Shown: piece by piece, positions 1,353 to 23,538 of the stretch
Layout: each line of letters starts with the position of its first letter
Numbering within the stretch: position 1 is the stretch's first letter
Assembly: GCA_000091165.1 (NCBI GenBank)
Contig: FP565575.1
Span: forward strand, 1,920,001-1,952,000
DNA from: Candidatus Methylomirabilis oxygeniifera
GTDB taxonomy: Bacteria > Methylomirabilota > Methylomirabilia > Methylomirabilales > Methylomirabilaceae
Length of the DNA stretch: 32,000 bases
Direction of reading: 5' to 3'
Made by a program: the position numbers and the translations under genes
Notes under the pieces: model-generated
Database searches by the model: none
The model's input: only the letters and a program-made list of their open reading frames with translations
What the model was told of the DNA's origin: nothing

Positions 1353-2075
1353 TTATTTTGCCGCCGCAATCGCTTCGTTCAGTGAGAATCTACCCTCGTA
1401 CAGGGCCTTCCCGACCAGGGCACCAATGACGATAGTGGGTTCAAGCGTCGCGACTCGCCTGAGATCGTCGAGTGTGGCAATCCCTCCGGACGCGATGATC
1501 GGGTGGCGGGCCGCCTGAGCCATTTGTTGCAACGCGCCCAGATTCGGTCCCGTGAGCATCCCGTCTCGCTCGATATCGGTATAGATAATCGCTGCCAGCG
1601 GAAGATCGGCCGCTCGTATCGCCAGATCGGCCGCGAGCAGCTCGGTGGCCTCCACCCAACCCCGTACCGCAACCTTCCCGTTTTTCGCATCGATTCCGAG
1701 CAGTACGCGACCGGGATAGCGATGGGCAGCCTCCCTCAAGAATCCCTCATCCTGGATGGCAGCCGTCCCAATGACGGCTCGCTCGATGCCGGAGGCAAAC
1801 GCCTGCTCCAAGGCAGCTAGATTCCGTAATCCGCCACCAAGCTGCACAGGAATCTTGATCGATCGGGCCACTTGGGCAACAACGGAAAGCTGCTGCGGCG
1901 TTCCGGCAAAGGCGCCGTCAAGATCGACCACGTGCAGAATCGGCGCCCCTTCATCCTCCCACCTCTTGGCCATAGCGACCGGGTCGGCGGAATAGGCGGT
2001 TTGACGTAGGGGATCGCCTTGCGACAACCGAACGACGTGGCCCCCTTTCAGGTCGATCGCGGGAATGATCAGCAT
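1353..2075 (-). CDS. hisA: 1-(5-phosphoribosyl)-5-[(5-phosphoribosylamino)methylideneamino]imidazole-4-carboxamide isomerase HisA
   Basis: 240-aa [36 protein letters not shown] and IASGGI motifs. Its stop lies 3 nt from the hisF start. Confidence 0.95.
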
Positions 2076-2248
2076 CTACGTGAGAGAGGCGAAGTTTTTC
2101 AGCAGTTGCAGGCCTAAGGCTTGACTCTTCTCGGGGTGAAACCGGCAGGCGAAGAGGTTATCACGCCACAGTACTGAGGTGAATCGAAGGCCATACTCGG
2201 TCGTCGCGGCGATCACGCTTTTATCCTCCGGTTGTACATAGTAGGAGT
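1985..2248. repeat. left copy of a 264-bp direct repeat (hisA 5' end plus hisH 3' end)
   Basis: Hand alignment to 3162-3425 at a constant offset of 1177 nt. No indels and 16 mismatches, 11 of them in the last ~80 nt. Confidence 0.95.
2076..2248 (-). pseudogene. hisH C-terminal fragment (duplicate of the last ~56 codons of hisH)
   Basis: The C-terminal 56 aa of ORF 2076..2312 are [56 protein letters not shown]. Full-length HisH has ...[56 protein letters not shown]. The N-terminal catalytic part is absent. Confidence 0.9.
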
Positions 2249-2413
2249 AGAGCACACAGGCACTTGTATCGCGGGTTTCTCTATCGGGCTGAGTATAGAC
2301 AAGGTGGTGCATAGTGTCAATGAGGGGAAATCAAGGAGCTTTGGGGAAGGCAGACCCAGGGACACCAATCCGTTTCTTGGGATAGCGCTTGGTTTTGTTG
2401 AAGTACTTCTTTG

Positions 2414-2441
2414 TTGAGACGTCATATAGTATTCTTAGTAA
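2414..2441 (+). promoter_or_regulatory. candidate sigma70-type promoter for the DUF4189-like gene
   Basis: TTGAGA (2414-2419), 16-nt spacer, TAGTAA (2436-2441), in the AT-rich stretch upstream of the ATG at 2541. An AAGGAA Shine-Dalgarno lies 8 nt before the ATG. Motif match only. Confidence 0.3.
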
Positions 2442-2540
2442 GAGTTTAACGGTGTGTCGTATGTGGTACCATTTGTCCTTATCAATTACGGCAGTATTGC
2501 ATTTTCAGGCTCCACTCTCTTTTAATAAGGAACTCTACAG

Positions 2541-3056
2541 ATGACAAAGCTAATGAAAATATCCTTTCTCCTTTTTATTAGTATGGTCGTGTCGTCCATG
2601 TTCACCGCAACTGTTGCCTTGGCCGATTGTTATCGGGACTGTATGGAAGCGTCTGGCTGTTGGAGTACAGAACCAGGAGTTAACGTAAGTTATTGCAGCG
2701 ACACCCAAGCCCGATGTTCATCAGATTGCCTCAATGAAGGCCCAAGCGGCCGTGGTAAAATCTACGGCGCCATCGCCTACAGCAAAGAAAACGGAGCGTA
2801 TGGCTACTCTCACGGCTGGACGAACCAGAAAAAAGCCGAAGCAGTCGCGCTTAAAAACTGCTCGGAACACGGATCGGGATGCGAATCGGTGGTGTGGTTT
2901 CATAATAGCTGCGGTGCAGTGGCAAGCGATGGCAGACGTGTGACCTGGGGGCAAGCTGATTCTGCGCAGGTCGCCATGAAGCAAGCCCTCGACAAATGCA
3001 ATAAAAGCTTTCTTAGGGGAAAGTGCAAAAACGTGGCGTCCCACTGTTCAGGATAG
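2541..3056 (+). CDS. secreted cysteine-rich protein, DUF4189-like
   Basis: 171-aa ORF with a signal-peptide-like N-terminus (MTKLMKISFLLFISMVVSSMFTATVALA/DC) and 14 Cys. The core YGAIAYSKENGAYGYSHGW..AEAVALKNC..GCESVVWFHNSCGAVA...WGQA....A...ALDKC matches my recollection of the DUF4189 pattern. Visibly lower GC than the flanks. One of only two plus-strand coding features called in this window; the other is the remnant at 30262-30429. Confidence 0.8.
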   Translation: MTKLMKISFLLFISMVVSSMFTATVALADCYRDCMEASGCWSTEPGVNVSYCSDTQARCSSDCLNEGPSGRGKIYGAIAYSKENGAYGYSHGWTNQKKAEAVALKNCSEHGSGCESVVWFHNSCGAVASDGRRVTWGQADSAQVAMKQALDKCNKSFLRGKCKNVASHCSG

Positions 3057-3091
3057 ACCGCGCCATTGTCTAAAAAGTCTCGGCCGCCCCA

Positions 3092-3160
3092 TCACAGACA
3101 TGCCATTAATTCATCGGGGCCTATTGTGCCATCACCGTTCACATCGAGTATATCGAGGGA
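3092..3160 (-). pseudogene. possible C-terminal remnant of an EF-hand / calcium-binding protein
   Basis: The minus-strand frame reads SLDILDVNGDGTIGPDELMACL-stop. DVNGDGTIGPDE fits the 12-residue EF-hand loop (D1, N3, D5, G6, I8, E12). There is no usable start and the frame runs into the repeat junction. Confidence 0.3.
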
Positions 3161-3161
3161 G

Positions 3162-3252
3162 CGGCGGAATAGGCGGTTTGACGTAGGGGATCGCCTTGCG
3201 ACAACCGAACGACGTGGCCCCCTTTCAGGTCGATTGCGGGAATGATCAGCCT
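3162..3252 (-). pseudogene. hisA 5' fragment (first ~30 codons) with destroyed start codon
   Basis: Matches hisA 1985-2075 with 2 mismatches. One of them changes ATG to AGG (plus strand cat at 2073-2075 versus cct at 3250-3252). The frame hits a stop just past the repeat boundary. Confidence 0.85.
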
Positions 3253-3425
3253 CTACGTGAGAGAGGCGAAGTTTTTCAGCAGTTGCAGGCCCAAGGCTTG
3301 ACTCTTCTCGGGGTGAAACTGGCAGGCGAAGAGGTTATCACGCCACAGCACTGAGGTGAACCGGATACCGTATTCGGTCGTGGCAGCGATCACGTTGTCA
3401 TCCTCCGGTTGTACATAGTAGGAGT
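3162..3425. repeat. right copy of the 264-bp direct repeat
   Basis: See 1985-2248. This copy contains the genuine 3' end of full-length hisH plus a dead hisA 5' fragment. Confidence 0.95.
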
Positions 3426-3885
3426 GGACGAAATAGAAAAATGCCCCATCGGGGATGCCCTTGAAGATCGGAGTCTGCTGTTCGATCCGGACGCGGTTCC
3501 ACCCCATGTGGGGGATCTTGAGTGGGGGCGATTCGCGAATCGCCTCTACCGCGGCATTCTTGAATCGGACGACCCGCCCCTTGATGATGTTGAGACCCGC
3601 ATGATGTCCGAACTCCTCGCTCTCACTGAACAGGAAGTGCAGTCCCAGGCAGATACCGAGAACCGGCGTACCCGCCTCAATCGCCCGAAGTAGCGGCTCG
3701 ATAAATCCACCATCCCGAAGCTTACTGATCCCATCGGCAAATGCACCGACCCCGGGTAGGACAATGCCGGATGCGTCACGGAGCGTTCGCGGATCCTCCG
3801 CGACCTTGGCGTCGGCCCCAACGCGCTCGAATCCCTTTTGGACGCTTCGGAGGTTCGCAATACCGGAATCGATAATGGCAATCAC
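3253..3885 (-). CDS. hisH: imidazole glycerol phosphate synthase glutamine amidotransferase subunit HisH
   Basis: 210-aa ORF. MIAIIDSGIANLRSV, PVLGICLGLHFLF (nucleophile Cys) and FHPEKS motifs. GTG start overlaps the hisB stop (GTGA). Confidence 0.95.
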   Translation of the reverse strand: MIAIIDSGIANLRSVQKGFERVGADAKVAEDPRTLRDASGIVLPGVGAFADGISKLRDGGFIEPLLRAIEAGTPVLGICLGLHFLFSESEEFGHHAGLNIIKGRVVRFKNAAVEAIRESPPLKIPHMGWNRVRIEQQTPIFKGIPDGAFFYFVHSYYVQPEDDNVIAATTEYGIRFTSVLWRDNLFACQFHPEKSQALGLQLLKNFASLT

Positions 3886-4469
3886 AAACTGCCTTTCGTC
3901 GAGGGGACGTCGGCGATCCGTAGATCAATCGCCGTCGCCTGATCGAGACACTTGGCCAATGCCTTAAAGATCGCTTCGACGCAATGGTGCAGATTCTCAC
4001 CATACAGGACCGCCACATGGAGGTCTACCTTCATGTTCATAACCAAAGCGCGCATGAACTCCTTGACGAGCGTGACATCGAAATCACCGATCCGACCCTG
4101 GAGTTGGGACGCCTCATAGACCAGATAGGGACGACCGCTGATGTCGAGCGCCACGCGCGCCAGCGCCTCATCCAGCGGGACAAGCGCCGAGGCGAACCGC
4201 CGGATACCCCGCTTGTCCCCCATGGCCTGAGCGAACGCGTCGCCGAGCGCGATCCCGACATCCTCCACGGTATGGTGCAGATCGATCTGAAGGTCGCCTC
4301 GCGCCTCAATGCTGAGGTCGAAGAGACCGTGTGTCGCCAATTGGGCCAGCATGTGATCAAGGAAAGGGACCTGAGTCTGAAGCGTGTGTCGGCCCGTTCC
4401 GTCCAGGTTGAGCTCCACCGTAACATCGGTTTCTGAGGTCTTCCTGCATACCCTGGCTGTTCGGCTCAT
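3882..4469 (-). CDS. hisB: imidazoleglycerol-phosphate dehydratase HisB
   Basis: ORF 3882..4514. I prefer the ATG at 4467-4469 (MSRTARVCRKTSETDVTVELNLDG...), which is preceded by GGAGAG. Motifs DLHHTVEDVGIALG and NLHHCVEAIFKA. Confidence 0.9.
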   Translation of the reverse strand: MSRTARVCRKTSETDVTVELNLDGTGRHTLQTQVPFLDHMLAQLATHGLFDLSIEARGDLQIDLHHTVEDVGIALGDAFAQAMGDKRGIRRFASALVPLDEALARVALDISGRPYLVYEASQLQGRIGDFDVTLVKEFMRALVMNMKVDLHVAVLYGENLHHCVEAIFKALAKCLDQATAIDLRIADVPSTKGSL

Positions 4470-4519
4470 GATCCGCTCTCCGTCCTCTGTGTCATCTCGC
4501 GTTGCACATCGCACCTCAA

Positions 4520-4588: not shown

Positions 4589-5668
4589 TCAATCCTGCTT
4601 CAGGGCCTTCGTCAATGCCTCCACAAACCGATTGTTCTCTGCTTTCGTCCCCACAGTGACCCGCAGGCAGTCTTGCAGGCCCGGCACCGACCCAATATTT
4701 CGCACCAAGACGCCCTGCTGAAGCAGCGCTCCGAACAGATCGCCTCCAGAATGCGTCGTCCGAAAGAGGATGAAGTTCGCTGCCGACGGAAAGGCTTCGA
4801 CGCCTGGTAACGCGACCAGACAGCCCATCACCCGCTCCCGCTCCCGGACCACCTCACCAATGTTGGCATCGATCCACTCATGGTGGTTGAGCAGTACGAC
4901 AGCGGCCGTCTGGGAGAAACTGTTCAGGTTGAACGGGAGGCGGACCTTCTCTATCTCGGCCGCGAGCGCAGGATGGGCAACGAGGTAGCCGATTCGCAGA
5001 CCGGCCAGTCCGATCTTGGAGAGGGAGTGGAGGATAACCAGCCGCTCCTGATCGATCAGGTGCGGCAGCATGGTCCGTCCGGCGTATGGCCCATAGGCTT
5101 CGTCCACCACGACCAATCCGGGCGCAACGGCAAGAATCTTACAGATCTCCGCCTCGGAGAAGACCCCGCCGGTTGGGTTGTTTGGTGTCGCGAGAAAGAT
5201 GATCCTGGGGCGCAATCGCTCGATGGTCTCGATCAGTGTCGGCAGGTCTGGCTCAAAGCGAGGGCCGAGCGGTACCCCTTCGAAGCGCAGTCCGTGAGCC
5301 CTCGCGATCAGTTCATACATCGAAAACGTCGGAACCGGGGCGAGCGCCGTAGCGCCAGGTCCGGAAGTCGCCAGCAGCAACAGTTGGATCAGCTCATCGG
5401 ACCCATTGCCGAGGACAAGCGATTCCGGCGACACCCGGAGCTGTGCGGCCAGGACTGATCGGAGCCGATCCGCTTTCGCATCCGGGTAGCGATGGACGTC
5501 TACCTGATCCAACGCACAGCGAAGTTCCCGGCGAAGCTCCTCGGGGAGCAGAAACGGGCTTTCATTGGCATCGAGCTTGATCAGACCTGGTCGTGGCTCC
5601 TCGGCTCGATACGCTGTCAGGCTCAGCACTTCAGGCTTGATCAAATCGAGCAGGCGCGGCCTCTTCAT
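4589..5668 (-). CDS. hisC: histidinol-phosphate aminotransferase HisC
   Basis: 359-aa ORF. KLDANESP, TPNNPTG and LSKIGLAGLRIGY (PLP-lysine context) are typical of class-II aminotransferase HisC. Confidence 0.93.
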   Translation of the reverse strand: MKRPRLLDLIKPEVLSLTAYRAEEPRPGLIKLDANESPFLLPEELRRELRCALDQVDVHRYPDAKADRLRSVLAAQLRVSPESLVLGNGSDELIQLLLLATSGPGATALAPVPTFSMYELIARAHGLRFEGVPLGPRFEPDLPTLIETIERLRPRIIFLATPNNPTGGVFSEAEICKILAVAPGLVVVDEAYGPYAGRTMLPHLIDQERLVILHSLSKIGLAGLRIGYLVAHPALAAEIEKVRLPFNLNSFSQTAAVVLLNHHEWIDANIGEVVRERERVMGCLVALPGVEAFPSAANFILFRTTHSGGDLFGALLQQGVLVRNIGSVPGLQDCLRVTVGTKAENNRFVEALTKALKQD

Positions 5669-5669
5669 G

Positions 5670-6959
5670 TCAGCTCAGCCTCCGGATCGAGGCCGCCCTC
5701 GCGTGGGCCTCAAGTCCCTCCAGACGGGCCAGCTCAACCAATGTCGGCTCCAGTGCCTCCAGCTTCTGTCGGCTGAAGGCGATCAGTGAACTCTGACGTT
5801 GGAAATCGGCCACGGAGAGGGGCGACGCAAAACGCGCCGTCCCTCCGGTCGGCAGGATATGATTCGGTCCGGCCAGGTAATCACCCACTACCTCCGGACT
5901 GGCACCTCCCATGAAAATAGCGCCCGCGTGTCTGATTTGCGGCAATAGTCCCCAGGGGTCCTTCACCAATAGTTCCAGGTGCTCAGGCGCGATCTCATTG
6001 CAGAGGGTGGCGGCCTCGCCCAGTCCCTTCACGACGACTGCCGCGCCGAACTGCTCCAAGGAGGCCTCTGCAATCTGTCGCCTGGGCAACAGCGCGACTT
6101 GGCGTGTGACCTCGTTCACCACCTCTCCGGCAAGCCGCTGGGATGGAGTGAGCAGCATCGCGCTGGAGAGCGGATCATGTTCAGCCTGCGAAAGCAGGTC
6201 GGCGGCAACCCAGGCGGCGTCGGCCTCCTCGTCGGCGATGATCAACAACTCCGTCGGGCCGGCGATCATATCGATCCCGACCTGTCCGAAGACCAGCCGC
6301 TTGGCCGCCGCAACATACACGTTTCCCGGACCCACGATCTTATCCACCCTCGGAATCGATGCAGTCCCATAGGCCATGGCCGCCACTGCCTGAACGCCGC
6401 CCGCCTTATAGATCGTATGAACCCCGCACAGATCGGCAGCAACCAGCACCGCGTCCGCGACCTTGCCGTCGCGACGCGGCGGCGTACACATCACGACCTC
6501 CGCGACGCCGGCAATCGCAGCCGGAATCGCATTCATGAGCACCGTAGACGGGTAGGCCGCCGTGCCACCAGGAACATAGATCCCTACCCGGTCCAGCGGA
6601 CGGACAACCATCCCGACGATCGCCCCGTCTTCCTCCGAGAACCAGGAGGGGCGGAGCTGTCGGAGATGAAAGGCCCTGACCCGCGATACCGCCGTCTTGA
6701 TCGCCTCAAGGGACGCGGGCGGCAAGGCGACATATGCGGCCTCAACCTCCCCTGACTTCACCTGCACCGACGCGGCATCGAGACGGACACCGTCGAACCG
6801 CTCCGTCTGCTCGAAAAGAGCGCTATCACCGCCCGTCCGTATCGCGTCAAGGATACCGCGAACGGTCCGCTCAACTTCGGCAGGCAGCGCGCCTTGTCGG
6901 GACCTGAGCTGCGCGACAAACAGCCGCCACTCTTGCGATCCGGCCTGAAGCAGCTTCAT
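5670..6959 (-). CDS. hisD: histidinol dehydrogenase HisD
   Basis: 429-aa ORF with IDMIAGPTELLIIAD, SQAEHD, APEHLEL and GDYLAGPNHILPT motifs. 4-nt overlap with the hisG stop. Confidence 0.95.
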   Translation of the reverse strand: MKLLQAGSQEWRLFVAQLRSRQGALPAEVERTVRGILDAIRTGGDSALFEQTERFDGVRLDAASVQVKSGEVEAAYVALPPASLEAIKTAVSRVRAFHLRQLRPSWFSEEDGAIVGMVVRPLDRVGIYVPGGTAAYPSTVLMNAIPAAIAGVAEVVMCTPPRRDGKVADAVLVAADLCGVHTIYKAGGVQAVAAMAYGTASIPRVDKIVGPGNVYVAAAKRLVFGQVGIDMIAGPTELLIIADEEADAAWVAADLLSQAEHDPLSSAMLLTPSQRLAGEVVNEVTRQVALLPRRQIAEASLEQFGAAVVVKGLGEAATLCNEIAPEHLELLVKDPWGLLPQIRHAGAIFMGGASPEVVGDYLAGPNHILPTGGTARFASPLSVADFQRQSSLIAFSRQKLEALEPTLVELARLEGLEAHARAASIRRLS

Positions 6960-7639
6960 ACGCGCGCCCTCACCGATTGCGCCTCAACCTGCTTCCGCAT
7001 CTCCTCGATCAGATCCTGGACCCGGCGGTACTTTGTCTTGAGGCTCGCCCGATTGACGATGAGCCGCGCCGTAGCCTTGGCGATCTCCTCAACCTCCACC
7101 AACCCGTTCTCCTTCAAGGTCTGTCCGGTCTCCACGAGGTCAACGATTCGCTCGGCCAGCCCCACAAGGGGCGCAAGCTCAAGAGACCCATTTAATTTAA
7201 TGATCTCTGCCTGGATCCCTTTGCGGCTGAAGAACGCTTCCGCGAGATGTGGATATTTGGTAGCCAGTCTCAGATGCGACCAGGAATGGGGGTCATCCTG
7301 CTTACGGAGTTCGGCGGGCTCTGCGACAACAAGTCGACAGGCGCCGAATCTGAGATCCAGCGGCTCATAGACATCACGGCACTGCTCGAGGAGCTGGTCC
7401 TTCCCCACGATCCCCATATCGGCGGCACCGTGCTCAACGTAGGTCGGAATGTCGGCAGGTTTCAATGTGAGGAACTGCAGTTGTCGAACCGGGTCCTCGC
7501 AGATCAGGCGGCGTGAATCAGCAAAACCTCGGAGACATGTGATGCCCATTCCCTCAAAGAGCGCCATGACAGGGGATAACAGACGGCCCTTGGGCAGCGC
7601 GATGGCAATGACGTCGTTATTTGAAGTTCCAGGTGTCAT
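6956..7639 (-). CDS. hisG: ATP phosphoribosyltransferase HisG (short form)
   Basis: ORF 6956..7708. I prefer the ATG at 7637-7639 (MTPGTSNNDVIAIALPKGRL...), because the 23 upstream codons are encoded by intergenic heptamer repeats. At 227 aa the length fits the short, HisZ-dependent form. Confidence 0.9.
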   Translation of the reverse strand: MTPGTSNNDVIAIALPKGRLLSPVMALFEGMGITCLRGFADSRRLICEDPVRQLQFLTLKPADIPTYVEHGAADMGIVGKDQLLEQCRDVYEPLDLRFGACRLVVAEPAELRKQDDPHSWSHLRLATKYPHLAEAFFSRKGIQAEIIKLNGSLELAPLVGLAERIVDLVETGQTLKENGLVEVEEIAKATARLIVNRASLKTKYRRVQDLIEEMRKQVEAQSVRARV

Positions 7640-7640
7640 A

Positions 7641-7708
7641 TTTCGCGTTTCGAATTTCGGGTCACTAGAAGAGTCCCACCTCGACACCCAACACTGCACA
7701 CTCGACAC
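7641..7708. repeat. two adjacent tandem-heptamer arrays in the murA-hisG spacer
   Basis: tttcgcg tttcgaa tttcggg (7641-7661), spacer, then tcgacac ccaacac tgcacac tcgacac (7681-7708). Confidence 0.85.
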
Positions 7709-7718
7709 TCTCTGTTAT

Positions 7719-8975
7719 TTATTCTGCGACTCGCTCGATGTCGGCGCCAAGGCCCTGAAGCTTTGTTTCAATCGACTCATATCCCCGGTCGAGATGATAG
7801 ACTCGCGAGACGGTGGTGGTCCCCTGAGCGGCCAGTCCTGCGAGAACCAGCGATGCGCTCGCCCGCAGATCGGTCGCCATCACCGGTGCGCCCGATAGCA
7901 TGGGAATGCCATGGACAAACGCCGTAGTGCCGATCACCTTGATATCCGCACCCATCCTCAGCAGCTCATTCACGTGCATGAATCGGTTCTCAAATACGGT
8001 CTCGGTGATGACGCTGCTCCCCTGGGCAATAGACATCAGCGCCATGAACTGCGCCTGCATATCGGTGGCAAATCCTGGATAGGGATGGGTTCTGACATTG
8101 ACCCCTCGCAATTGTCCGTCTCCCAAGACCCGAATACTGCGGTCCGTCTCCTCTATCAGTACGCCGGTCTCCCGCAGTTTCTCTGTAATCGCCTCCAGGT
8201 GGCCCGGCAGGCAATGAGTGACGGTGACGTCTCCGCCGGTGATCGCGGCCGCAACCATAAAGGTCCCCGTCTCGATCCTGTCCGGAATCACCTCGTGCGC
8301 TGCTCCGTGCAGATGCGAGACGCCCTCGATAGTGATCGTCGGCGTTCCCGCGCCCTCGATGCTCGCGCCCATACCATTCAGCAGAGCGGCCAGGTCGACG
8401 ACCTCGGGCTCGCACGCAGCGTTCTCCAGCACCGTCACCCCATCGGCCAGCGTGGCGGCCATCATTACATTCTCAGTGCCGGTGACGGTCTGGCCATCGA
8501 ATGTAATCCTGGCGCCCTTCAAACGCGACGCCTTCGCTTCAACGTATCCTGCGTCAAGGCTGACCGTTGCACCCATCTTCTCAAGCGCCGCCAGATGCAG
8601 ATTGATCGGCCGTGACCCGATGGCGCACCCTCCCGGCAAAGAGACCCGTGCTCGTCCGAATCGGGCCACCAGGGGGCCGAGAACCAGTACCGATGCCCGC
8701 ATCGTCTTGACCAGTTGATAGGGCGCCTCACACTGACCGATGCCATCGGCACGAAGGGATAGAGTCTCTCGATCGCGTCGTTCGACGCTCACACCTAAAT
8801 GGCTGAGCAGACCGATAGTCGTCTTCACGTCGCCCAATTGCGGAACACGATGAAGCTGGATCGACTCTCCTGTAAGCAACGAGGCCACCATCTCTGGCAG
8901 GGCCGCGTTCTTTGCGCCACCAGCCTCCACCTGTCCTCTGAGGGGGACCCCGCCTCTGATAATCAGCCTATCCAT
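7719..8975 (-). CDS. murA: UDP-N-acetylglucosamine 1-carboxyvinyltransferase MurA
   Basis: ORF 7719..8999. I prefer the ATG at 8973-8975 ([27 protein letters not shown]...), giving 418 aa. The catalytic-Cys context [12 protein letters not shown] is present. Overlaps the prmC stop by 8 nt. Confidence 0.95.
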
Positions 8976-9975
8976 GCGCCCTCTCGCGCCTTGGCGCACA
9001 CACGACCCGGTCGCGACCGGCCATGTCCTGCCTCACCTCCGCCGGTCCGAAGCCTTCTGTCTTCCGGATCAGTTCCATCACCGCGGATGCCTGACCGTCA
9101 CCGACCTCGAAGACCAGCCAACCGCCGTCGCGAAGATAGGCAGGAGCCGCTTCGATGATTCGCCGATAATAGCGCAGGCCGTCCGGGCCGCCATCGATGG
9201 CCTCGACAGGCTCGTAGGCGGTGATCTCAGGAGCTAAGACGCGGCAGGCGGCTGAGGGAATATACGGCGGATTTGATACGATCAGGTCACACCCTCCCCC
9301 GGCGTCGATCGTCCGAAACGGCTCAAGAAGATCGCCTTGGACGCAGCGAACCCTGTTCGTCAGTCCAAGCGTGTCTATGTTCCGTCCGGCGATTCGACAG
9401 GCACCCGGCGAACGATCGATGGCATAAATGAGCGCACGAGGCAGTTCGACCGCCAGCGCCAAGGCAACGGCGCCGCAGCCGGTGCCGAGATCCACAATAA
9501 CCAGTTGTGAGTGTCGAGTGTTGAGTGTTGAGTGTTGGGTCTCTGAGCCTTGACACTTGACACTGATCTTGTCCAGGGCGGTCTCGACAAGCGTTTCGGT
9601 GTCCGGCCTTGGAATCAGGACATCCGGGCTCACTGCCAAGAGAAGCGACCAGAACTCTTTTACCCCAAGGATATAGGCAACCGGCTCTCTGGCCTCGCGC
9701 CGGGACACCATCGATTCAAGGAGGCCGGATCTGTCTAAGGGAATTGGTTGCTCCGGATCCAGGATAAACTGCCACCTCGGAATGCCCGACGCCGCCTCCA
9801 TGAGGTACGCTGCGTCAAGCGGCGCGCTCTGCACGCCGCTCTCCACCAGCCGCTCCACCACCTGACGGTACGTGAAAATCTGAGGGGTGTGGGGTGTGGG
9901 GTGTGGGGTGTAATGGAGTTGTACTTCGCGCTTCGTGCTTCGCGCTTCTTCTGCAAGCGTAGACGTCATCCTCAC
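8968..9975 (-). CDS. prmC: peptide chain release factor N5-glutamine methyltransferase PrmC, with two repeat-encoded in-frame segments
   Basis: 335-aa ORF with [13 protein letters not shown] (SAM site), the NPPY motif ([10 protein letters not shown]) and RPDTETLVE. The start is GTG at 9975 (GTGA overlap with the prfA stop) or ATG at 9969. Confidence 0.92.
9508..9564. repeat. imperfect inverted heptamer cassette inside prmC
   Basis: gtga gtgtcga gtgttga gtgttga gtgttgg g (9508-9539), spacer tctctgagcc, ttgacac ttgacac t (9550-9564). Translated as [20 protein letters not shown] between the conserved LVETAL and VDLGTG blocks. Confidence 0.9.
9884..9951. repeat. two adjacent tandem-heptamer arrays at the prmC 5' end
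   Basis: (GGGGTGT)x4 at 9884-9911, spacer aatggagttgta, then cttcgcg cttcgtg cttcgcg cttcttc at 9924-9951. Translated as [23 protein letters not shown]. Confidence 0.9.
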
Positions 9976-11060
9976 ACCAACGCCTTCAATCGCGCGGCCT
10001 GATCGCTGGCTGCGAGCGCGCCGATCAGCTCCTCGATCTCCCCCTCCAGGATCCGCGGGAGGCTGTGGAGCGTGAGCCCGATTCGATGGTCGGTGACCCG
10101 CCCCTGTGGGAAATTGTAGGTGCGTATCCGTTCACTCCGATCTCCTGTGCCGACCTGCTGACGGCGCGCCTGCGAAATCTCTGCCGCCTGCTGTGCCGTG
10201 GCAGCCTCAAGCAGGCGGGCTCGCAATACCTTCATCGCCTTGGCTCGATTCTTATGCTGCGACTTCTCATCCTGACAGGACACCACCATTCCGGTCGGCA
10301 GATGGGTAATTCGCACGGCTGAATCGGTGGTGTTGACGGACTGCCCTCCAGGCCCTGTTGACCGAAAGACATCGATCCGAAGATCCTTGGGGTCAATCTG
10401 TATCTCCACATCCTCCGCCTCCGGCAGAACGGCAACTGTGACGGTAGAGGTGTGAATCCGACCACTTGACTCGGTAACAGGGACCCGCTGCACCCGGTGG
10501 ACGCCGCTCTCGAATTTCAGGCGGCTGTACGCGCCGCGCCCCTCAATGCTGAGGATCGCCTCCTTCACTCCGCCAACCCCCGTCTGACTTGAAGACAGCA
10601 TCTCCACCTTCCAGCCTCGTAGTTCCGCGTAACGGCCGTACATCCTGACCAGCTCCGCAGCGAACAGTGCGGCCTCGTCGCCGCCGGCCCCAGCCCGTAC
10701 CTCCAAGATGATACTTTTCTCATCGGCCGGATCGCGAGGAAGCAACAACAGCGTAAGTTCCTCCTCAAGTTTCTCCCGCTTGACGGCCAGCTCCTTCAGC
10801 TCCGCCTCTGCCAACTCGCGCACATCGTCTTCGGTGCCGTCGTGCAGTAAGGCTTTCGTCTCTTCCAGGTCCTGCAGGAGCTTACGATACTGCTGATAGG
10901 CCTCCACCACCGGTTCCAGTTCCGCATGCGCCTTGGCCAACCGCTGAAAGCGAGCCTGATCGGTGATAATAGCCGGATCACCCATCTGCAACAGGACCTC
11001 GGTAGATCGCTGTTCGATGGCGTCCAGGCGCTCACGCAACTGTAACATCGATGTTACCAT
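9972..11060 (-). CDS. prfA: peptide chain release factor 1
   Basis: 362-aa ORF with a PxT-type tripeptide context ([14 protein letters not shown]), the GGQ motif ([20 protein letters not shown]) and [13 protein letters not shown]. Confidence 0.96.
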
Positions 11061-11453: not shown

Positions 11454-11538
11454 ATTCAGCCATCAGCCGTCAGCGGTCAGCAAAAGTAGGAAACCGATAG
11501 CTCCCAGCCGATGGCCGATTGCCATAAGCTGAACGCTG
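11454..11538. repeat. tandem heptamer array (NNTCAGC)x4 with a short inverted partner
   Basis: attcagc catcagc cgtcagc ggtcagc (11454-11481). gctgaacgctg (11528-11538) is the reverse-complement type (cagcNNtcagc). Confidence 0.8.
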
Positions 11539-19866: not shown

Positions 19867-21060
19867 TCAGAGGAGCTGGACAATCAGTTCATTAGCTACG
19901 AGGAGGCCCCGCTCTGCGATCTGCACCCGCCCGTCTTTCAGGCAAAGGAACCCATCATCCAGAAGACGGGTGACCCGGTCGGACGCCGCGAGCTCTTCAA
20001 CGCCAAGTACATCCTTGAATGTCTGCACGTCCAGTCCGCTCCGAAGACGAAGCCCCAACATCAGCCGCTCTGACCGTAGCATCTCGGCGGACAGCTCTTC
20101 GCCACAGGCCACGGCTGTCTCACGCTCGGCAATGGCGGATACGTAGCGTGCCGGCAGCAACTCATTATAAAACCGACGTCCGGCAACGAATGAGTGCGCT
20201 CCAGCCCCAATACCGACGTATTCCTGATGTTGCCAGTAGACCAGATTGTGCCGACAACGAAAGCCCGGACGCGCAAAGTTTGAGATCTCGTAATGCTCAA
20301 AGCCGTCGTTACACAGCCGATCCACAGCCATCTGGTACATCATTGTCTCTGTTTCCTCGTCAGGTAGTCCAATCTCGCCTTTACGATGCTCCTGATAGAG
20401 AGGCGTCCCCTCTTCGAGGATCAGCCCGTAGGCAGAGACATGTTCAGGCTCCACACCAATGACCCAGTCAAGAGTTTCCGACCAATCGTCCATGTTCTGA
20501 CCGGGTAGACCGAACATCACGTCCAGGTTGATGTCGCCAAAACCGGCCTCACGCGCCATCCGGTAGGCCCGTTCAGCCTCGTGGGCAGTATGAGCGCGGC
20601 CGATCCGCTGAAGGAGTCGATCCTGAACAGCCTGAACGCCTATACTCAGACGGGTCACCCCGCCCTCTCGCAACGTACGAAGCTTTGGAAGGTCGACCGT
20701 CCCCGGGTTAGCTTCAAGACTGACCTCTGCACCGACTTCAAAGGTGAAGGCCGCCCGGCACTGGTCGAGGATGCCGATGAGTTGCGACGCGTGGAGTATT
20801 GAGGGCGTCCCGCCGCCGAAGAAGACAGAGCAGACCGGCCGGTGTCGAATGACGTCTGAGGAGGCGCGGTGCGCAATCTCTTGCGCCAGCGCCTCCAGAT
20901 ACTGCTCTATTTGAACATCATCGAATCGGTAGCTGTTAAAGTCACAGTATTGACAGCGCGACAGACAATAGGGGATATGGATGTATAGGCCAAAAGATGT
21001 TGAGTGTTGAGTGTTGAGTGTTGAGTCAACGGAGAGGCCGGCACTTGACACTGAGTTCAT
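19867..21060 (-). CDS. hemW: radical SAM heme chaperone HemW / HemN-like oxygen-independent coproporphyrinogen oxidase family protein
   Basis: ORF 19867..21114. I prefer the ATG at 21058-21060, which overlaps the lepB stop (ATGA). The CxxxCxxC radical-SAM motif is present (IPYCLSRCQYCDF). The first ~20 residues ([22 protein letters not shown]) are repeat-encoded. Confidence 0.9.
   Translation of the reverse strand: MNSVSSAGLSVDSTLNTQHSTSFGLYIHIPYCLSRCQYCDFNSYRFDDVQIEQYLEALAQEIAHRASSDVIRHRPVCSVFFGGGTPSILHASQLIGILDQCRAAFTFEVGAEVSLEANPGTVDLPKLRTLREGGVTRLSIGVQAVQDRLLQRIGRAHTAHEAERAYRMAREAGFGDINLDVMFGLPGQNMDDWSETLDWVIGVEPEHVSAYGLILEEGTPLYQEHRKGEIGLPDEETETMMYQMAVDRLCNDGFEHYEISNFARPGFRCRHNLVYWQHQEYVGIGAGAHSFVAGRRFYNELLPARYVSAIAERETAVACGEELSAEMLRSERLMLGLRLRSGLDVQTFKDVLGVEELAASDRVTRLLDDGFLCLKDGRVQIAERGLLVANELIVQLL
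20999..21052. repeat. imperfect inverted heptamer cassette at the hemW 5' end
   Basis: (GTTGAGT)x4 at 20999-21026, spacer caacggagaggccggc, acttgacact at 21043-21052. Confidence 0.9.
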
Positions 21061-23500: not shown

Positions 23501-23510
23501 GTCGATAAGC

Positions 23511-23538
23511 CTTCAGCCGTCAGCCTTCAGCGTACAGC
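23511..23538. repeat. tandem heptamer array (NNTCAGC type) upstream of lepA
   Basis: cttcagc cgtcagc cttcagc gtacagc, starting 11 nt upstream of the lepA ATG. Confidence 0.8.

Follow-up and report, generated by a model that had tools for sequence, protein, structure and literature searches.

The 32,000-nucleotide stretch of DNA analysed here (hereafter the window, whose positions serve as coordinates below) comes from Candidatus Methylomirabilis oxygeniifera (GCA_000091165.1, contig FP565575.1, positions 1,920,001 to 1,952,000 of the forward strand), an organism for which we use the name Candidatus Methylomirabilis oxyfera. Its histidine biosynthesis (his) operon lies on the minus strand and is interrupted between hisH and hisA by a duplication-insertion unit of 1,177 bp. 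Functional hisA (1353-2075; 240 amino acids (aa); Pfam His_biosynth, E-value 2.8e-76) is the orthologue of the hisA found in relatives that lack the insert, and functional hisH (3253-3885; 210 aa; Pfam GATase, 2.1e-19) has homologues with up to 95% identity. A segment of 264 nt, made of the hisH 3' end and the hisA 5' end, is present twice, at 1985-2248 and at 3162-3425. The first 91 nt of hisA (1985-2075) fall within the left copy and the last 173 nt of hisH within the right one. Both copies were found by repeat search, base comparison and BLAST. The repeat search reported one long direct repeat (1985-2251 and 3162-3428, spacing 1177, 94% identity); compared base by base, the 264-nt copies differ by 16 mismatches and no indels, with a 17th mismatch at 2249 and no similarity beyond it. 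The BLAST E-value of the pair (1.8e-112) indicates that this similarity is not due to chance. The mismatches are clustered, 12 of the 16 lying in 2172-2222, and the 187 nt at 1985-2171 are 98% identical. The insert between the copies (2249-3161, 913 bp, 49% G+C) is missing from five relatives, and the G+C content of 2252-3161 is 49.0% as compared to 60-61% in the flanks.

Each functional gene is thus accompanied by a displaced piece of the other. The hisH 3' fragment (hisH', 2076-2248, minus strand) comprises the last 57 codons and the stop of hisH, and its TAG abuts the hisA ATG. It carries H to Y at the catalytic histidine and Q to R in the motif QFHPEKS, which is invariant in 72 relatives, and on these substitutions we regard it as non-functional. 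The hisA 5' fragment (hisA', 3162-3252, minus strand) comprises 30 codons whose start ATG is changed to AGG at 3251. In the hisH part of the repeat 14 bases differ, with 8 synonymous third-position changes and 4 non-synonymous codons (6 bases), the same counts of total and synonymous changes as those given in the initial annotation of this region. The repeat, the insert, the low G+C content, the AGG start and the mismatch counts of that annotation are likewise all present where it had placed them. The unit is a true duplication-insertion that parts hisGDCBH from hisAF(IE). It carries a plus-strand cargo gene (2541-3056) of the DUF4189 family. No transposase, integrase, ParE or antitoxin was recognised by Pfam in the insert, no Pfam match was obtained for its five small open reading frames (ORFs), and no inverted repeats were found at 2249/3161; the lack of transposase, integrase and terminal inverted repeats agrees with what had been reported from inspection of the letters. 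A lysine-rich reading of 2340-2420 (minus strand), considered as a transposase remnant, had no Pfam support and was discarded. Rfam returned nothing at gathering score in the whole window; a COG2908 match inside the repeat was below threshold (17.8 versus 58.7 bits).

The same locus was compared in relatives, which are mostly metagenome-assembled genomes (MAGs) or metagenome contigs and which were reached through protein searches and the contigs that hold the exact proteins; HisH homologues were traced at 86-94% identity, and 12 loci were examined. A HisH scan of genome contigs gave no Methylomirabilis locus among the matches listed, the best there having 61% identity. The closest homologue of the cargo gene was found in a different species, at locus L086 (GCA_040960765.1), also between a hisH' upstream of hisA and an intact hisH. 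L086 and the window are 90.8-92.3% identical over the operon and 93.1-94.5% in the sequence blocks from which the tree was built. The direct repeat of L086 has the same junctions and the same spacing of 1177. The non-coding parts of the insert are 88-93% identical between the two, a value close to that of the flanking genes, which fits vertical descent since the split of the two lineages. By this comparison, the duplication-insertion is shown to predate the split of the two species. The initial annotation had favoured a recent acquisition, and had named an identical arrangement in relatives as the observation that would speak for an old, fixed structure instead. L086 largely has that arrangement and related versions occur in more distant lineages, and a recent origin is not retained.

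How, then, have the repeat copies remained so alike? Within a genome they are 93.9% (window) and 98.1% (L086) identical, as compared to 88.6-89.4% in the four comparisons across genomes. Inside the repeat there are 18 sites at which the copies agree within each genome and differ between genomes, and no site at which left goes with left and right with right. Moreover, states absent from the five relatives with an empty site occur at 4 sites in both window copies and at 5 sites in both L086 copies. When a change is seen in both copies of one genome, one copy must have passed it to the other, and the alignment shows in this way that the copies have evidently been kept alike by gene conversion within each genome. 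The patch at 2172-2222 is a stretch that has escaped recent conversion in the window. Compared with the relatives, the odd state lies on the right, functional copy at 2220, 2218, 2196, 2189, 2184 and 2115, and on the left fragment at 2222, 2193, 2172 and 2143. Roughly half of the differences therefore go back to changes in, or imports into, the functional gene that is under selection, and the synonymous bias is expected from that alone. The bias had been read as a sign that the hisH fragment derives from a diverged, functional allele of foreign origin. For the window this reading is not supported, since at about half of the differing sites it is the functional copy that deviates, and since the copies share window-specific changes.

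Other relatives of the window revealed that the hisH-hisA junction is variable in this clade. In five lineages the site is empty and the hisH stop abuts the hisA ATG: L091 (GCA_003104975.1), L093/L094 (M. lanthanidiphila), L096 (GCA_900206355.1), L100 (a JGI contig) and L102 (GCA_900465445.1). In three further lineages this junction is occupied by other cargo, and the duplication lengths are different. The first consists of L099 and L103, both from GCA_035561835.1: L099 reads hisH, 34 hisA codons, 222 nt, an ORF of 248 aa and the contig end, and L103 reads antitoxin, ParE, 52 nt, 135 nt of the hisH 3' end and hisA-hisF-hisIE. The second, L104-L106 (JGI), carries a compact islet in the order hisH stop, 7 nt of hisA, about 25 nt, a promoter module described below, antitoxin, ParE, 55 nt, 135 nt of hisH, and hisA. 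The third, L101 (JGI), whose contig turned up in an exact search for the promoter core, reads hisH, 38 hisA codons, about 230 nt, the module, ORFs of 767 aa and 479 aa, and broken pieces of an IS3-type (insertion sequence) transposase. The transposase pieces match rve_2/rve_3 and HTH_21, and this large island is located at 7171-10910 and 10961-11826 of L101. In every filled version a hisA 5' piece follows the intact hisH and a hisH 3' piece precedes the intact hisA, and the fragment lengths differ among lineages (hisA' about 2, 30, 34 or 38 codons; hisH' 135 or 173 nt). The antitoxin of the L104/L105 pair is PF09720 (8.5e-16) and the toxin is ParE, PF05016 (4.6e-13 in L104, 1.1e-13 in L103). 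Nothing significant was obtained from Pfam for the 767-, 479- and 248-aa ORFs, and PADLOC gave no matches for the cargo proteins of the window, L099 and L101. A HisA protein search gave no full hisA entry on the 63.6-kb L101 contig. Trees of hisD+hisC and of hisA/hisF gave the topology ((window, L086), (L099/L103, L102)), L100, ((L101 or L104), L096), L093, L091, in which filled and empty sites are sisters twice over and are interleaved. The comparison of empty and filled sites that had been proposed as a check has in this way found both states within the clade.

The toxin-antitoxin (TA) part of these islets has a history of its own. Between L103 and L104, hisA is 84% identical and the antitoxin, ParE and downstream spacer are 96.2-96.4% identical; the identity falls sharply to 87% exactly at the hisH' start, and is 84% in hisA. 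Synonymous codon differences number 5 in 100 codons of ParE versus 64 in 241 codons of hisA. The cassette is so much more alike than the his genes that it must have been exchanged long after the lineages diverged, and these identities show an exchange between lineages that ended at the his fragments. No homogenisation is seen in the displaced fragments of L099/L103: they are 90% identical to the functional copies, from which they differ by 19 synonymous and 2 non-synonymous codons, and L102, the empty sister, matches the functional halves. The match of L102, together with the synonymous excess, indicates that the L099/L103 fragments descend from functional-looking alleles of another lineage. 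Import of his fragments along with the islet thus does occur in this family, and the idea of an imported allele, not needed for the window, is partly borne out in L099/L103.

What the window insert has in common with the islets of L099, L101 and L104 is, besides the his fragments, only a module of about 100 nt (2258-2358, minus strand; 86-89% identical by BLAST), which is also present in L086 and L105. The module contains a predicted sigma-70-type promoter, TTGACA-17 nt-TATACT, with the -35 at 2320-2315 and the -10 at 2297-2292 (minus strand), facing hisH'-hisA-hisF-hisIE. It matches the consensus at 11 of 12 positions, and its spacing of 17 lies within the 17±1 nt used for such calls. No other match of at least 11 of 12 exists in the 32-kb window, where 0.04 are expected from block shuffles, and it is the sole promoter-like site found in 1800-4000. 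Across six aligned loci the two hexamers are invariant, unlike the bases of the spacer and those on either side. In L104/L105 the start of the PF09720 antitoxin follows the module at about 90 nt, a position that makes the module the likely promoter of the TA operon there. In the window and in L086 the TA genes are missing and the promoter module is kept, joined directly to hisH' and facing hisA-hisF-hisIE. These observations back the prediction that transcription of hisA can start within the insert, one of the two possibilities raised in the initial annotation. A 7-nt microhomology (TTCGTCC) at the junction of module and hisH' was considered and dropped, because the L086 junction does not exactly reproduce it.

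Several small reading frames lie downstream of this promoter or overlap it. The chimeric 78-aa ORF (2076-2312, minus strand; no Pfam match), previously proposed to preserve translational coupling, does exist and its TAG directly abuts the hisA ATG. Its own ATG (2312-2310) is inside the promoter spacer, and the ORF would therefore not be carried on a transcript begun at that promoter. A possible translation entry point for hisH' is the GGAGG at 2229-2225, which precedes a GTG (2216) of the same frame by 8 nt; translation from there would cover the last 46 codons of the fragment. In L086 (7534-7743, minus strand), L099 (about 5917), L101 (about 6941) and L104/L105, an ATG located 7 nt after the -10 opens a short ORF beginning MEKN(R/S)D(E/T)SSY. 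In L086 this frame continues through hisH' and ends, after 69 codons, at the TAG next to hisA; the window has ATA (2284-2282) in place of the ATG, and a 1-nt deletion shifts the frame there. The conserved frame could be a leaderless small ORF. Finally, a palindrome with a 9-bp stem (GGTCAGGAT...ATCCTGACC) occurs about 45 nt upstream of the -35 in L099 (5800-5830) and L101 (about 6830-6856). It is not in the window, and in L105 it is interrupted by the left junction of the islet; an operator and a transcript insulator are conceivable roles.

The DUF4189 cargo gene encodes a cysteine-rich, putatively exported protein, 171 aa long, which matches PF13827 over profile positions 1-97 of 97 (E-value 9.5e-20; 71.4 bits versus a cutoff of 25). 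Read by eye, the translation has a hydrophobic N-terminus that ends in VALA/DC and resembles a signal peptide, and many cysteines. The L086 copy is 95% identical at the aa level, with 6 synonymous and 8 non-synonymous codon differences, and both copies are intact. The next homologues have at most 69% aa identity. One of them, in L089 (8001-8513; 69% aa and 76% nt identity), stands in an unrelated gene context, in a genome of 50.8% G+C. The window cargo gene has the same G+C content as that genome, 50.8%, as compared to 58-60% for M. oxyfera, and because of this match and of the unrelated context of the nearest homologue outside the locus, the composition fits a horizontal acquisition of the gene. 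A DUF4189 family member of Xanthomonas, XAC2611, is a periplasmic protein that stops sibling killing by the type IV secretion system of this genus, and another, Rv1813c, is a secreted protein of M. tuberculosis; an N-terminal signal sequence and conserved cysteines that form disulfides have been described for both. Neither function is transferable to the window protein, and a search of PDB sequences gave no match to it. On the plus strand upstream of the gene, no sigma-70-like site was found even at 8 of 12 matches. From the hisH stop to the DUF4189 stop there is no intrinsic terminator and no unusually stable fold (z-scores +2.0 and -0.7).

Taken together, we consider it probable that the 1,177-bp unit represents, in M. 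oxyfera, a variable islet that occupies the zero-length hisH-hisA junction in several Ca. Methylomirabilis lineages, the window form being a reduced member of a polymorphic islet borne by recombination. Because hisH and hisA abut without a spacer, only insertions that duplicate the junction would spare both genes and the region upstream of hisA. The first event may have been a single crossover of Campbell type, or the junction may first have been duplicated in a short tandem and filled later. Once in place, the his fragments could serve as homology arms for transfer: conversion would make them resemble the resident genes of one host, and the islet would then move by homologous recombination in his sequence, taking the fragments along. 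The direct repeats would also permit precise loss by recombination, which could account for the empty sister lineages, and the ParE pair would discourage such loss where it is present. In the window, the conserved promoter may now transcribe hisA-hisF-hisIE and so offset the break in the operon, and translation through hisH' may aid initiation at hisA. This form has persisted through speciation between 264-nt repeats, suggesting some benefit from the DUF4189 gene or from the new promoter.

Several observations weigh against this reading. The hisH' of the window is longer than the one next to ParE in L103/L104 (173 versus 135 nt), and the window form therefore does not derive from the L103/L104 form by simple deletion; a derivation from the L104 type by loss of the TA genes was ruled out on this ground. 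A common origin of the two forms thus needs extra steps or an unsampled ancestor. Apart from the module and the his fragments, nothing in the insert is similar to the other islets. The promoter prediction takes NC10 promoter rules to be sigma-70-like. The tree makes no call between gain and loss at each node, the linkage of L099 with L103, two contigs in a single MAG, is assumed from their common assembly, and the L101 island is known without its right end.

An origin in situ is an alternative. In this case a short tandem duplication of the hisH-hisA junction, of at least 287 nt, provided a harmless spacer within the operon, which was later entered by a TA cassette, the DUF4189 gene, an IS element and further genes, and lineage-specific deletions then trimmed the fragments. 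It would explain why hisA' and hisH' vary in length among lineages, why L099 resembles L101 without 12 nt of hisA' and a further 122 nt, and why the left junction of L105 cuts a palindrome that is intact in L099/L101. Against it, no duplicated junction free of insert was seen among the 12 loci, and the 96% identity of the cassette across lineages speaks for movement between genomes rather than for a purely local history. We rate this explanation as unlikely, though worth keeping in mind.

A recent integration of Campbell type, in which a circle carrying hisH'-hisA' of a diverged strain and the DUF4189 gene recombined once with the chromosome, would account for direct repeats of the same his interval around the insert and for differences biased to synonymous changes, and the fragment import in L099/L103 and the movement of the cassette between lineages lend it some plausibility. 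As a recent event it is improbable, given that the junctions and spacing are the same in L086, that the non-coding parts of the insert are about as conserved as the flanks, that both window copies share derived states specific to the window, and that about half of the differences are derived on the functional copy. For the original, ancient event such a mechanism is possible. We are equally doubtful of a site-specific mobile element driven by an integrase or transposase, which would target the hisA 5' end, supply a replacement gene end and have left a decayed remnant in the window. Occupation of the same junction in at least four lineages with a common end module, the broken IS3-type transposase pieces of L101, and a gene-end duplication of the sort typical of such elements (PMC6379469) all agree with it. 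However, the window insert, the compact L104/L105 islet and what can be seen of L099/L103 all lack an integrase and an intact transposase, the limits of the duplication vary from one lineage to the next, unlike those of a fixed att core, and terminal inverted repeats are absent. Lastly, a mis-joining of strain variants of the junction around an unrelated fragment, conceivable for an enrichment-culture metagenome in which a Logan unitig breaks inside both repeat copies, is hardly credible, because Methylomirabilis_oxyfera_contig_232 (ENA, 202-kb), WBTX01000028.1 (NCBI) and the Logan unitig (SRR023516), which covers 2085-3191 and crosses both insert junctions, are each 100% identical over the region, because the copies differ at 16 sites that allow reads to be placed, and because the independently assembled L086 has the same structure. 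The window HisA protein is also recorded on a 2.75-Mb contig. The artefact against which the initial annotation had cautioned is therefore very unlikely.

The islet that we favour, borne by recombination and reduced in the window, can be compared with known systems. Chromosomal type II TA cassettes of the ParDE type are small mobile islets that stabilise the surrounding DNA ("addiction" modules). The islets of the relatives resemble them, with a PF09720 antitoxin and a PF05016 ParE under their own promoter and more conserved than the flanking core genes. The window copy differs in having neither toxin nor antitoxin, only the homologous promoter module, and a place inside an essential biosynthetic operon with long gene-fragment repeats is unusual for such cassettes. 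Bacterial duplicates such as tufA/tufB and the rRNA operons evolve in concert by gene conversion, and the repeat copies likewise are closer within a genome than between species, with patchy identity. The difference is that one partner of each half is here a non-functional fragment. Since conversion acts on these pseudo-fragments, they look like functional alleles, which explains the synonymous-biased differences. Campbell integration of suicide plasmids gives the same order of homologous segment, insert and homologous segment with both flanking genes intact, but the window islet has no vector functions, is ancient and common to species, and has no observed circular form. Like the outward-reading promoters of IS and other mobile elements, the islet promoter is borne by the element and placed to drive downstream host genes; unlike them, it is probably the islet's own TA cargo promoter, redeployed by deletion of the cargo, and there is no transposase. 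From IS elements and transposons in general the window insert further differs by the lack of inverted repeats and of a short target duplication, the duplication being 264 nt long and variable among lineages. The closest analogue is probably prophage e14 in E. coli icd, where the element supplies a replacement gene end, a 163-bp icd' pseudo-fragment is left as a direct repeat and excision restores the gene (PMC6379469). As with e14 and phage 21 in icd, an insertion in a housekeeping gene is tolerated via a replacement end, and the gene end is duplicated on both sides. The window islet differs in having no integrase or phage genes and no fixed att core, its junction positions being variable. Furthermore, its duplication spans a gene-gene junction within an operon, its copies are homogenised by conversion, and its promoter would restore downstream expression.

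The literature searches gave no report of an islet locus at hisH-hisA. A bolder proposal is that these islets form a distinct, recombinase-free mobile cassette, with target-gene homology arms kept fresh by conversion, a promoter that repairs polarity, a ParE TA pair that counters loss, and species hopping by homologous recombination, the selfish core having decayed in M. oxyfera and the promoter having been domesticated for the distal his operon. We advance this proposal tentatively, as possible but not favoured. Junction duplication, conversion-kept fragments, a shared promoter and exchange between species are a new combination of known processes and not a new kind of system.

The rest of the operon region lies around the unit on the same strand, with a partial hisIE (1-509) and hisF (510-1349) downstream of hisA, and hisB (3882-4514), hisC (4589-5668), hisD (5670-6959), hisG (6956-7708) and murA (7719-8999) on the other side of hisH. 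In the window hisB and hisH overlap by 4 nt (3882-3885), and in several close relatives they are about 60-180 nt apart (L086 9349-9413, L099 4821-5001, L091 4833-5001); by these coordinates the hisB-hisH junction is likewise variable in the clade. Past window position 1 of the same genome, 3' of hisIE-HIT, L001 (2228-3690) holds genes for HicA, Phd/YefM-ParE, a CopG-type antitoxin and a HicB-like protein, and relatives have other TA or HTH (helix-turn-helix)/peptidase pairs at the position 3' of the his operon. The whole neighbourhood of the operon appears to be a hot spot for TA-type cassettes.

Tandem arrays built of 7-nt units also recur in pairs in the window, one such pair being TGGGGTG x4.7 and, after it, CTCGACA x4.3. 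They are found at 870-902 and 912-941 (in hisF), 7680-7710, 11456-11481, 20998-21026 and 23508-23531, and as pairs in the prmC ORF (8968-9975) at 9508-9537 with 9549-9564 and at 9884-9911 with 9924-9948. Several fall in coding regions and add in-frame loops, as in HisF, whose length varies between 254 and 283 aa in the relatives; alignments to them by BLAST are interrupted at about 889-953, and a public contig stops at 885. The arrays recall the short tandemly repeated heptamers of cyanobacteria.

For the family, the islets indicate that an essential, translationally abutted junction without intergenic space can host foreign DNA, by way of a duplication of the junction and of a promoter carried in the insert itself. 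They would offer natural examples of gene conversion making non-functional gene fragments look like selected alleles, of a TA cassette that moves between species with target-gene fragments as its recombination arms, and possibly of the domestication of a selfish-element promoter to run hisA-hisF-hisIE. For M. oxyfera, they predict that the his operon consists of two transcription units, and that an acquired periplasmic DUF4189 protein has been retained across speciation despite flanking repeats able to delete its gene.

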